DNA of 64,000 nucleotides from an uncultured Phycisphaera sp. (GTDB taxonomy: Bacteria; Planctomycetota; Phycisphaerae; Phycisphaerales; Phycisphaeraceae): positions 7,366 to 71,365 of the forward strand of contig CAZBXW010000009.1 in assembly GCA_964496285.1 (NCBI GenBank), in the 5' to 3' direction. The translations under genes were made by a program, and so were the position numbers. Of the stretch, positions 2,249-41,702 are shown piece by piece. The notes beneath the pieces were generated by a model, which had not been told where the DNA came from, ran no database searches, and was given only the letters and a program-made list of their open reading frames with translations. Each line of letters begins with the position of its first letter. Within the stretch, counting starts at the first letter, position 1.

Positions 2249-3754
2249 ATGGATCAACCCTCCGCGGACATCGGACTGATCGGCCTGGCGGTCATGGGCC
2301 AGAACCTGGCGCTCAACATCGCGGACCACGGCTACAAGGTCGCGGTGTTCAACCGCACCGTCCAGACGATGCGGCAGTTCGTCGCCGAGAACCCGCACAC
2401 GCCCGGCGGACTCGTGGGCTGCGAATCGCTCACCGACTTCATCACGGCTCTGAAGCAACCCCGCAAGATCATCGTGCTCGTCAAGGCGGGCCCCGCGGTG
2501 GACGGCATCGTCGAGCAACTGCTCGCGGCGGGTCTGCAACGCGACGACATCGTCGTGGACTGCGGCAACTCGCTGTGGACCGACACGATTCGACGCGAAA
2601 AACAGTACGCCGAACGTCTGAAGTTCTTCGGCTCCGGGGTCAGCGGCGGCGAAGTCGGGGCACGCTTTGGCCCTTCGCTCATGCCCGGGGGCGATCCCGA
2701 TTCCTGGAGACACCTCCAACCCATCTGGATGGCCATCGCTGCCAAGGTCGATGACAAGACCGGCGAGCCCTACGAGGACTACGCCCCCGGAAAGCCCATC
2801 GACCAGGGCGTCCCCTGCGCCGCGTACATCGGCCCCAACGGCGCGGGACACTACGTCAAGATGGTCCACAACGGCATCGAGTACATCGACATGCAGCTCA
2901 TCTGCGAGGCCTACTTCCTCATGAAACATCTGCTGGGCATGCCCGCCCACCAGATCGGGCAGGTCTTTGACATGTGGAACCAGGGACCGCTGGCGAGCTT
3001 CCTGATCCAGATCACCGCTGACATCCTGCAACAGCCCGACCCGAAACACCCCCGGAAGTTTCTCGTGGACTACGTGCTCGACACCGCGGGGCAGAAGGGC
3101 ACGGGCAAGTGGACATCCGTCAACGCCCTGGACATGGGCATCCCCGCCAACGCGATGGCCGAGGCGGTCTTTGCGCGCTGCTTGTCCGCGCTCAAGGAGG
3201 AGCGTGTGGCCGCCTCGAAAAAGCTCCGGGGGCCAAAGCCCCGCTTCAAGGGCAAGAAGAAAAAACTTATCGACGCCATCCGCGACGCGCTCTACTGCTC
3301 GAAAATCTGCGCCTACGCCCAGGGCTTCCAGCTCATGACCCAGGCGCAGAGCGAGTACCACTGGAAGCTCGATTTCGGGACCATCGCCAAGATCTGGCGC
3401 GGCGGGTGCATCATCCGCGCCCGCTTCCTTCAGAAGATCACCGACGCCTACACCTCCAACCCGCAATTGAAGAACCTGATGCTCGACAACTATTTCCGCA
3501 GGGCCATCGACAAGGGCCAGGACCCGTGGCGCAAGGTCGTGGCGCTGGCGGCGGAGAACGGCATCGCCGCCCCGGCGTTCATGAGCGCCCTGTCGTACTA
3601 CGACGGCTACCGTGCCAAGGTGCTGCCGGCGAATCTGCTCCAGGCGCAGCGCGATTACTTCGGCGCTCACACCTTCGAACGCACCGACACCCCGCGCGGA
3701 CAGTTCTTCCACCTCGATTGGCCCGCCCCTGGCCGCCCCATGACCCAGGTCTAG
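2249..3754 (+). CDS. gnd: 6-phosphogluconate dehydrogenase (decarboxylating)
   Basis: N-terminal Rossmann motif [16 protein letters not shown] and [15 protein letters not shown], with a full-length Gnd-like sequence. The upstream part of ORF 2012..3754 is out of character. Start taken as ATG 2249 (alternative 2225). Confidence 0.95.
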
Positions 3755-4599
3755 CCCGCTCGCCAAGGGCTTGTTTTCGTGGCGTTCTGCAACGCACGGA
3801 CTTCCGGGGGCGTGAGCGGGCGGGCGGCGCCGCTGGGCAGGCCTTTGAGGTGCAGCGGGCCGATCGCCGTGCGCTCCAGGCGCTTGACCTTGTGGCCGAG
3901 CTTCTCGATCAGGCGGCGAATCTCGCGGTTCTGACCCTCGCGCAGCGTCACCAGCAGGATGGTCCGGTCGCCACGGTCGCGGTCGTGTTGCACCGCGATG
4001 CGGCGCACGTCCTCCATCGCGGCGCGCTTCGTGCCCACCGCGGTGTCGCCCTGGCGCTGCGTCAGATGCAGGCCACGCTTGAGGCGGTCCACCTCCTCGT
4101 CGGTGAGCGAGCCGCGCACCGCCACGCGGTACTGCTTGGTGACCCCGAAGCGCGGGTGGGTGAGCCGATTCGCCAGTTCGCCGTCGTTGGTGAGCAGGAT
4201 CAGCCCGGTGGACTCGGCGTCGAGTCGCCCCACGGGATAAAGACGCTGCCCACGCGAAAGCTCCGGGGGTACGAGGTCGATCACGCCGGTGCGTCCCAGG
4301 TCGTCATGGGTGGTGGAGATGATGCGTTTGGGCTTGTGCAGCGCGATGTAGAGGAGGCGCGAGGCCGCGGCGCGCCGCGTTCTGGGTTGACGCACGACCT
4401 GCCCGTCCACCTCGACGCGGTCCTGGAGCGGGTCGCAGAAAGCTGGCAGGGTGCTCACCACACGTCCGTTGACCTTGACCCGACCTTCGAGGATCAGTTC
4501 TTCGCACTTTCGGCGCGAGGCCACCCCCGCGTCGGCGAGAACCTTGTGGAGTCGAACCGCGCCCGGCGAGGGCTTGCAATTCTTGGAGCTAGAAGGCAT
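3751..4599 (-). CDS. pseudouridine synthase, RsuA/RluB family
   Basis: S4 domain ([30 protein letters not shown]) followed by the catalytic core [17 protein letters not shown]. Start trimmed to ATG 4599 (MPSSSKN). Confidence 0.9.
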
Positions 4600-4653
4600 T
4601 GCGACCAAGCCTAGCAGATGACGCCCGATTTTGTGAGAAACGCCGGTTCGGTG

Positions 4654-4682
4654 TTGACGCGAGACAAAACGGACAGTATTAT
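4654..4682 (+). promoter_or_regulatory. sigma-70-type promoter (TTGACG-N17-TATTAT)
   Basis: -35 TTGACG at 4654-4659 and -10 TATTAT at 4677-4682, with a 17-nt spacer. Lies in an otherwise GC-rich intergenic region. Confidence 0.6.
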
Positions 4683-4688
4683 CTCTTG

Positions 4689-4894
4689 TTGTCAGGGAAT
4701 GGTTGAGCCGACACGCGACTTCAACGCAGCCAACCATCTCCGCAGCACGCGTCGCCCAGGGCCCAAGAGGTGAGCGGCCCAAAGCGACGCGGAACACACA
4801 CCCAAGCGCGTTGTCGCCCTCGCGTGTCGGCCCCAACTCTGAAGTGGGTTTCGGCCCCGCGGCATGCTCGCACGTCCCGCGGGGCTTTTTTTTT
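4689..4894 (+). ncRNA. candidate structured small RNA with rod-like, 6S-like architecture
   Basis: Starts just downstream of the consensus promoter. Nested long-range helices: 4707-4718/4820-4831 (12 bp perfect), 4722-4727/4808-4813, 4748-4755/4784-4791, 4759-4763/4776-4780. Large internal loop 4728-4747 / 4792-4807. Ends in an intrinsic terminator. The overlapping ORFs 4703..4975 and 4721..4951 have no coding character. Confidence 0.5.
4854..4894 (+). terminator. rho-independent terminator
   Basis: GC stem GCCCCGCGG (4854-4862) / CCGCGGGGC (4877-4885) followed by a run of nine T (4886-4894). Confidence 0.8.
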
Positions 4895-4903
4895 ACACCG
4901 CGG

Positions 4904-4971
4904 CCGCCGATGAACGCCGATGGACGCCGATATGACGAAGGCATGATTCATCGATCGGCGTCCATCGGCGG
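4904..4971. repeat. tandem-word palindromic element, C-type (CCGCCGATGRACGCCGAT words)
   Basis: The left arm ccgccgatgaacgccgatggacgccgat is the reverse complement of the right arm atcggcgtccatcggcgg. Same word set as the elements at 43208 and 46523. Confidence 0.8.
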
Positions 4972-5017
4972 TTGACCGGGCCTGAGCTTCCGTCGGTCGC
5001 AGTCAAGCGGGTATCCT

Positions 5018-6064
5018 GTGGCAACCGTTCAAACCTCCACGGGAGCACCGCTCATGGCTGTATCCGACGCGCAACAGGCCCTCGACCAGGCTCGCAAGTT
5101 CACGGAGGACTTCGCCAAGGTCCGCTCGCAAATCCAGAAGGTCATCGTCGGTCACCAGGAGATCGTCGAGGGCGTGCTGACCTGTCTCTTCGTGGGCGGT
5201 CACGCCCTGCTCGAAGGCGTCCCCGGGCTGGGCAAGACGCTGCTGATCCGTTCGCTCAGTCAGGCGCTGTCGCTGCAATTCAGCAGAATCCAATTCACCC
5301 CCGACCTGATGCCCGCGGACATCACGGGCACGACGATCGTTCTTGAAGAGCCCAATTCCGGCCGCCGCGAGTTCAAGTTCCAGCGCGGCCCGATCTTCGC
5401 CCAGATCGTGCTGGCGGACGAGATCAACCGCGCCACGCCCAAGACTCAGTCCGCCATGCTCGAAGCGATGCAGGAGCGCAGCGTCACCGTCGGCGGCGTC
5501 ACGCACCCGATGGACAAGCCCTTCTTCGTCATGGCCACTCAGAACCCCATCGAGCAGGAGGGAACCTACCCGCTGCCCGAGGCGCAGTTGGACCGTTTCT
5601 TCTTCAAGCTGCTCGTGGGCTACTCCAGCCGCGCCGAGCTGGGCGAGATTCTCAACCGCACCACCATGGCGAGCGAACCGAGCATCGAACCCGTGCTCGA
5701 CGCCCCCGGAATCCTGGCGCACCAGCAGTTGGTGCGTCGCGTCATCATCGCCCCGCACGTGCAGGACTACGCGGTGCGCTGCGTCCTGGCCACGAACCCC
5801 CAGGGCGAGTTCGCCTCCAGGTTGGCCAGGCAGTTCCTGCGTTTCGGCGCTTCGCCCCGCGCCGCCCAATCACTGGTGCTGGGCGGGAAAGTCCGGGCTC
5901 TGCTCGACGGTCGTGCCCACGTCAGCGTCGAGGACATCAAGTCGGTGCTGCTCCCGGCCATGCGCCACCGCGTGCTGCTGAACTTCGAGGGCCAGGCCGA
6001 GGCCATGACCACCGACATGATCCTCAACGACATCGCGGATTCGCTGCCGGTGGAGGCGAGCTAA
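5018..6064 (+). CDS. MoxR-family AAA+ ATPase
   Basis: Walker A GVPGLGKT, Walker B LLADEINRA, and MoxR-typical ATQNPIEQEGTYPLPEAQLDRF. Confidence 0.95.
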   Translation: MATVQTSTGAPLMAVSDAQQALDQARKFTEDFAKVRSQIQKVIVGHQEIVEGVLTCLFVGGHALLEGVPGLGKTLLIRSLSQALSLQFSRIQFTPDLMPADITGTTIVLEEPNSGRREFKFQRGPIFAQIVLADEINRATPKTQSAMLEAMQERSVTVGGVTHPMDKPFFVMATQNPIEQEGTYPLPEAQLDRFFFKLLVGYSSRAELGEILNRTTMASEPSIEPVLDAPGILAHQQLVRRVIIAPHVQDYAVRCVLATNPQGEFASRLARQFLRFGASPRAAQSLVLGGKVRALLDGRAHVSVEDIKSVLLPAMRHRVLLNFEGQAEAMTTDMILNDIADSLPVEAS

Positions 6065-10486: not shown

Positions 10487-10561
10487 GGTGGGCGTAGCTC
10501 AGCTGGTTAGAGCATCGGGTTGTGGTCCCGAGGGTCGGGGGTTCGAATCCCCTCGCTCACC
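10487..10561 (+). tRNA. tRNA-His (anticodon GTG)
   Basis: Cloverleaf by hand: encoded G-1, acceptor GTGGGCG/CGCTCAC, D arm GCTC..GAGC, anticodon stem TCGGG/CCCGA with loop TTGTGGT, T arm GGGGG-TTCGAAT-CCCCT, discriminator C. CCA is not encoded. Confidence 0.9.
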
Positions 10562-41456: not shown

Positions 41457-41702
41457 TCACGCCTGAGCAGGCGGGGCGGGGTCGGGCGCGGGGGTGGGGG
41501 TAGCGGTGGGGTTGGACTTGGCAGCCTCGGCTTTGGCTTTCTGCACCGCCAACTCGCGGCGGTTGACCTGCATGTCGCGGGGGAAATCGAAGGACAGACG
41601 CACCTTGTCGCCGTGGATCTCCACCACGCGAATGACGCCCAGCGGCTTGGCGGGGTCGCCGATGACGATCTCTTCGCCGATGCGTCGCGTCAGAGCCAGC
41701 AT
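41457..41702 (-). CDS. csrA: carbon storage regulator CsrA with Pro/Ala-rich C-terminal extension
   Basis: MLALTRRIGEEIVIGD...VRLSFDFPRDMQVNRRE matches the CsrA fold. Start trimmed to ATG 41702. Confidence 0.85.
   Translation of the reverse strand: MLALTRRIGEEIVIGDPAKPLGVIRVVEIHGDKVRLSFDFPRDMQVNRRELAVQKAKAEAAKSNPTATPTPAPDPAPPAQA

Follow-up and report, generated by a model that had tools for sequence, protein, structure and literature searches.

A candidate lineage-restricted small RNA gene in the gap between rluB and moxR of a planctomycete genome

The divergent genes rluB and moxR of an uncultured Phycisphaera sp. are separated by a gap of 454 nt, which contains a promoter, a sequence that is predicted to fold into a long rod, and an intrinsic terminator. 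This arrangement raises the question whether the gap encodes a 6S RNA, a terminated leader of moxR or a small RNA (sRNA) of its own, or whether the signals lie together without forming an RNA gene. The analysis covered the whole stretch of 64,000 nt, in the following called the window, which corresponds to C9:7366-71365 of a 3.49-Mb assembly that has 66% GC and is 97% complete. The homologues of the RluB protein of this genome carry Phycisphaeraceae or Planctomycetota as source names. Among the species genomes compared, the genome is the sole representative of its genus. In a collection of 5.8 billion proteins the nearest RluB match had at most 63% identity, and thus no close relative is publicly available.

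Judged from the sequence, the best reading of the locus is an ordinary orphan, species-specific small RNA candidate of the young, lineage-restricted kind. The features on which this reading is based are summarized in Table 1.

Table 1. Features of the gap between rluB and moxR and of the flanking genes (window coordinates)
Feature	Position	Strand	Description
rluB	3751..4599	-	Pseudouridine synthase, S4 and PseudoU_synth_2 domains (PF01479, PF00849); assigned from translation and homologues; start codon at 4599
Promoter	4654..4682	+	TTGACG-N17-TATTAT, near-consensus sigma-70-type, 10/12 matches; directed away from rluB
Predicted transcription start	4688..4691	+	G4688 or G4691, placed from promoter geometry, 6-9 nt past the -10 hexamer
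Rod-shaped fold	4692..4842	+	151-nt irregular hairpin with closing stem, large internal loop and apical stem-loop
Internal loop, 5' strand	4731..4745	+	CAACCAUCUCCGCAG; 15 nt, C/A-rich, predicted single-stranded
Internal loop, 3' strand	4793..4805	+	AACACACACCCAA; 13 nt, G-free, predicted single-stranded
Intrinsic terminator	4853..4894	+	Nine G-C pairs (G4854-G4862/C4877-C4885), then T9 (4886-4894)
moxR	5054..6064	+	AAA+ ATPase, ATG at 5054; assigned from translation; its orthologues in relatives of the family and order are 69-80% identical

Signals, coding capacity and fold of the gap

Both transcription signals of the original prediction, the near-consensus promoter and the strong terminator, are present in the sequence. 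The promoter is the sole promoter-like site on both strands between 4000 and 5600, a region for which shuffled sequences gave 0.1 such sites. The weak minus-strand promoter candidates for rluB, which is divergent from the candidate RNA, overlap it (TCAACC-17-GATAAT at 4706..4678 and TCAACA-18-CAAAAT at 4657..4628). The terminator hairpin has a 14-nt loop containing a 3-bp inner helix and a folding energy of -22.2 kcal/mol. Runs of at least nine T are found just six times on both strands of the genome, the T9 of this terminator among them. The terminator is predicted to be active on the plus strand only, because the opposite strand has no T-run. Upstream of the gap the plus strand is antisense to rluB and contains no gene, and therefore the terminator can end only transcripts that begin within the gap.

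No open reading frame (ORF) lies within the interval between the predicted start (~4689) and the terminator, and every plus-strand ORF crosses the hairpin and the T9. When the interval was compared by tblastx with the loci of the relatives and with the genome itself, no coding remnant was detected above noise. On the minus strand, the rluB frame remains open for 345 nt upstream of the real start, up to an ATG at 4944 (window 3751-4944), and this extended frame crosses the RNA gene, the terminator, where it encodes KKK, as well as the repeat element behind the terminator. A gene caller that selects the longest ORF would thus report a false RluB of 397 aa and mask the RNA gene.

For 4690-4850, the MFE structure, the centroid and the constrained-fold solution were one and the same rod, with an energy of -67.1 kcal/mol. 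Four helices that had been read directly in the sequence, i.e. 4707-4718/4820-4831 (12 bp, perfect), 4722-4727/4808-4813, 4748-4755/4784-4791 and 4759-4763/4776-4780, are all part of the MFE and centroid structures, with unpaired probabilities of about zero. A large internal loop of 20 and 16 nt (4728-4747 and 4792-4807) had also been proposed. The large two-sided loop was recovered, but the MFE structure adds three pairs and thereby narrows it to 15 and 13 nt. Within the wider borders, the mean unpaired probabilities of the two strands were 0.84 and 0.83, respectively. The strands are not complementary to each other, and the 5' strand (4731-4745) is a candidate interaction surface in the predicted fold.

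Compared with dinucleotide shuffles, the z-score was -2.4 for the rod and -2.9 when the terminator was included, which is similar to the value of -3.05 obtained for the 6S RNA of this genome. However, among 161-nt windows drawn at random from the same genome, 36% folded at least as stably as the rod, and the fraction was 21% for GC-matched windows. In addition, the genome contains 125 perfect inverted repeats of at least 12 bp with a spacing of 60-140 nt, roughly half of which belong to repeat elements, judged from repeated words. The fold energy is thus ordinary for this GC-rich genome, and therefore the case for an RNA gene rests mainly on the pair of promoter and terminator and on the absence of an ORF.

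Conservation and the reading as a stand-alone sRNA gene

Homologues of the candidate were searched for with several methods. With blastn, 60 relatives yielded nothing but one chance match of 30 nt to the terminator, and there was no match in phages and plasmids. No match to the moxR loci of the relatives was found with nhmmer. The single sequence, together with its MFE structure, served to build a covariance model (R1). This model had no match in 100 family genomes, its best E-value was 1.25 when laxer filters were applied to 39 relatives, and its best score was 15 bits when 25 rluB loci were searched with the filters off. The latter match was rejected, as it is an unrelated near-perfect palindrome of 180 nt. 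This palindrome (L059:3420-3600) lies about 1 kb from rluB in relative G001, has G/C-rich arms (CCCTCGGGAGAGGGCTGGGGTGAGGG), a folding energy of -118.7 kcal/mol and a z-score of -9.8, and probably represents a mobile palindrome. Exact patterns comprising the 12-bp helix pair and both loop strands had 0 matches in metagenome and genome contig collections, and the exact helix pattern had 0 matches in viral contigs.

The same method was applied to the genome's own 6S RNA as a control. Of 24 family genomes, 23 yielded 6S RNA with the resulting model (R2), at E-values from 1e-18 to 0.01, and 6S RNA was also retrieved in most order-level genomes. The approach is thus able to detect family-level orthologues, and therefore the candidate truly lacks them and the negative result is meaningful. 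Within its own genome the candidate is single-copy, and the most sensitive blastn search revealed only chance 13-15-mers. It is therefore not a repeat element.

The original prediction had named a lineage-specific sRNA as a second choice, and this turned out to be the best-supported reading in silico, as promoter, terminator, stable rod and the lack of an ORF all agree with it. An own promoter, an own Rho-independent terminator and an intergenic position, as expected of a stand-alone sRNA gene, were all found in silico. The signals make it likely that a transcript of ~200 nt is produced. We consider it moderately probable that the locus is a functional, stand-alone sRNA gene of ~200 nt (about 4689-4892, plus strand) that acts via its exposed loop and is restricted to this species or genus.

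If this reading is correct, RNA polymerase with the housekeeping sigma factor would initiate at the near-consensus promoter, transcribe the GC-rich rod and halt at the intrinsic terminator, 160 nt before moxR. The product would consist of, in this order, the 151-nt hairpin with G-poor, C/A-rich internal-loop strands, the terminator hairpin and a U-tail. Its most likely role would be that of a trans-acting regulator, the exposed loop strands of which pair with G-rich mRNA segments or bind a protein. Such regulation would proceed without Hfq, which was not detected in the genome. Duplex energies of the loop strands with the sequences around the moxR and rluB translation starts were at genomic background, and the genome-wide search for complementarity to the RNA returned only chance-level 13-15-mers and identified no target or seed. 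An RNA that sponges CsrA, of the CsrB/RsmY type, was considered and rejected, as there are only two GGA motifs (4696-4698 and 4791-4793), neither of them in the apical loop. The genome, without detectable Hfq, harbors three genes of the CsrA family (window 41544-41702, minus strand; C8:72403-72558; C1:551358-551501).

The candidate resembles trans-acting sRNAs, which have an own sigma-70 promoter, a Rho-independent terminator and a length of 50-300 nt, in that it is an independent intergenic unit with no ORF. It differs in having no sequence or covariance-model relation to any Rfam family. A further likeness exists to RsaE/RoxS of Firmicutes and other Hfq-independent sRNAs whose unpaired seeds are C-rich. 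Here, too, a stem-loop body is predicted to expose G-poor, C-rich single strands, the 3' end carries a hairpin with a U-tail, and the genome lacks detectable Hfq. However, the unpaired segments of the candidate are located in an internal loop and not in hairpin loops. In a limited literature search, no directly relevant paper was found for Planctomycetota, class Phycisphaerae. If the gene is real, it adds one species-specific small RNA to this class and would illustrate how an RNA gene can be confined to the rearrangement junction of one lineage. By itself, the candidate settles no open question, and its practical value is negative, in the form of cautions for annotation.

Alternative explanations

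The gene order in the relatives bears on two of the alternatives. A co-directional gene of ~480 aa, here called gene X, precedes moxR at a distance of 2-180 nt in about 20 family genomes, and the product of gene X contains TSRLLAAKRRA in its C-terminus. No T-run terminator precedes moxR in 29 relatives, with the exception of one T6 at -485, rluB adjoins moxR in none of these 29, and no comparable unit was found upstream of the moxR or rluB orthologues of the relatives. The gap between rluB and moxR is therefore a lineage-specific rearrangement junction, which argues against an ancestral moxR leader and would allow that promoter and terminator were joined recently. The ancestral operon link of gene X and moxR (loci L005-L031) is broken in the present genome, in which gene X is located at C1:505316-506872, with a palindromic element and a convergent gene downstream of it.

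Accordingly, the unit could be a mere by-product of the rearrangement, i.e. the break between gene X and moxR would have placed a promoter, perhaps one half of a divergent rluB control region, and a terminator 200 nt apart, and the transcript would be absent or functionless. Gene order, the ordinary fold energy and the lack of any homologue, found with a method that does recover 6S RNA, are all compatible with this explanation. The frequency of such pairs was estimated by a genome-wide scan with simple rules (promoter-like sites with at least 10/12 matches; terminators defined as a hairpin plus T6). The scan yielded 107 promoter-like sites and 117 terminators, and five promoter-to-terminator pairs with a distance of 40-450 nt. 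The number of pairs expected was 0.7 for uniform placement and 1.6 for placement within non-coding DNA defined by a crude mask. Measured against these numbers, the signals, unlike the fold energy, exceed chance. By this crude mask ~22% of the DNA is non-coding, and it contains 90 of the 107 promoter-like sites. Thus, up to about a third of the five pairs could be chance juxtapositions. However, one of the five is a tRNA gene and another one, C1:130054-130407, has a core that is kept in 12 of 40 relatives, and therefore the class is enriched in real RNA genes. Furthermore, the signals are unusually strong for relics, and a terminator without function would not be expected to retain nine G-C pairs and nine T's. 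Four colinear, nested helices, including the perfect one, and the absence of any trace of a decayed ORF also speak against a by-product, which we therefore regard as rather unlikely.

The reading as a terminated leader, or attenuator, of moxR-DUF58 had been proposed as an alternative in the original prediction. According to it, the promoter at 4654 drives moxR and the terminator sets the level of read-through, possibly in response to a rod-binding factor. Orientation and distance to moxR would suit a leader, and as the co-transcribed upstream gene was lost in this lineage, moxR needs a new promoter. No plus-strand promoter-like site with at least 8/12 matches was found between the terminator and the moxR ATG; however, most real promoters of this genome must score below the threshold of the scan, and a missing one proves little. 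The alternative is weakened by the terminator itself, which is very strong, and by the lack of a predicted competing antiterminator fold. The same rod was obtained with the terminator allowed, truncated or blocked, and the only alternative structure was a weak hairpin. No Rfam riboswitch or leader matched the region beyond noise, and a palindromic repeat element of 72 nt intervenes between the terminator and moxR. Together with the relatives, in most of which a co-directional gene directly precedes moxR and in 29 of which no comparable leader was found, these results make a moxR leader unlikely.

The original prediction had placed 6S RNA first, on the grounds of shape, and this did not hold. 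A whole-genome search with the Rfam 6S model (RF00013) at E<=10 identified a single locus, the canonical 6S RNA at C6:107503-107681, with 75.7 bits compared to a cut-off of 46.4 bits. Between 4500 and 5100 the model had no match even at E<=10, and thus the family threshold was not reached. A tRNA at 10488-10561 was the sole match of the whole window in the Rfam gathering scan. When 4500-5100 was scanned permissively (E<=10), the matches were all sub-threshold, with at most 27 bits to assorted sRNA families, and were rejected as generic terminator similarity, since the alignments cover the terminator hairpin and the U-tail only. The candidate RNA is thus not the 6S RNA of the cell, and the region should not be annotated as such.

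It could still be a second 6S-type RNA, i.e. the holoenzyme would be sequestered by a rod whose bubble resembles an open promoter, beside the canonical 6S RNA. In some bacteria 6S RNA occurs in two versions or has an unrelated analogue, e.g. Ms1. The shape would fit, as rod, order of size, closing stem, two-sided bubble (15/13 to 20/16 nt) and apical stem resemble 6S RNA (SsrS), albeit in a single-sequence prediction. Unlike 6S RNA, however, the candidate has a shorter rod, an apical part of only 46 nt and, beyond the rod, a terminator hairpin of its own at the 3' end. Moreover, 6S RNA is conserved across the family and the order, whereas the relatives, with their 6S RNA, all lack the candidate. 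A second RNA of this type is therefore highly improbable.

Ms1 RNA of Actinobacteria is a 6S-like RNA of ~300 nt that binds the RNA polymerase core, and its conservation spans a phylum-level group in which canonical 6S RNA is missing. By analogy, the candidate might share the idea of a lineage-specific structured RNA that is unrelated to 6S RNA in sequence and possibly has a polymerase-binding role. Unlike Ms1, it is a singleton in a genome with a canonical 6S RNA. It would be a bold and very improbable proposal that planctomycetes of the Phycisphaerae type have fast-evolving, species-specific rod RNAs beside 6S RNA, which bind RNA polymerase or another core machine, and that the candidate is a young second regulator of the 6S/Ms1 type, born at the rearrangement junction.

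Lastly, a palindromic element that acts at the DNA level (REP-like) and is kin to the tandem-word palindromes of this genome, instead of an RNA gene, is hardly credible: the genome is full of intergenic palindromes, the word of the element at 4904-4975 occurs 17 times and the rod arms hold loosely similar words (ACGCGAC, ACGCGTCGC), but the candidate is single-copy, the strands of its internal loop do not pair with each other, and it is placed precisely between a promoter and a terminator.

Other promoter-to-terminator units and palindromic repeats

The orphan promoter-to-terminator unit at C3:169986-170177 (minus strand; L038) has the promoter TTGACA-18-TAAAGT, a length of ~155 nt and a T8 terminator. 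Its AT content is unusually high for this genome, and it had no Rfam match at E<=0.01. At C3:115291-115376 (plus strand; L036), the promoter TTGACA-17-CATACT is followed by an RNA of ~50 nt, which has a CU-rich, anti-Shine-Dalgarno-like 5' end (CUCUUUCUCCUCCGCC) and a 14-bp terminator hairpin at its 3' end. This RNA is a candidate for an sRNA that targets ribosome binding sites.

The unit at C1:130054-130407 (plus strand; L035:355-708) spans ~320 nt from promoter to terminator and has a very stable fold of -176 kcal/mol. Its conserved core (about nt 100-260) was found by plain DNA match in family and order relatives, and no Rfam family scored above its threshold. A weak match of 32.5 bits to the Caulobacter sRNA CC2171 is due to the shared segment GAAAGGAGGUGrUCCAGUGUC, which represents an extended Shine-Dalgarno sequence, followed by GUG and a 10-codon ORF. 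The unit may be a conserved RNA that encodes a leader peptide or has a dual function.

The 72-nt palindrome downstream of the candidate (window 4904-4975) starts 10 nt past the T9 and is not part of the candidate RNA. It contains the tandem words GCCGATGRAC, and its tandem words recur 13-22 times across the genome. Comparable palindromes are also located 3' of the terminator of the C1:130054-130407 unit and, likewise on C1, 3' of the gene X stop codon. Therefore, tandem-word palindromes seem to settle just past 3' ends.
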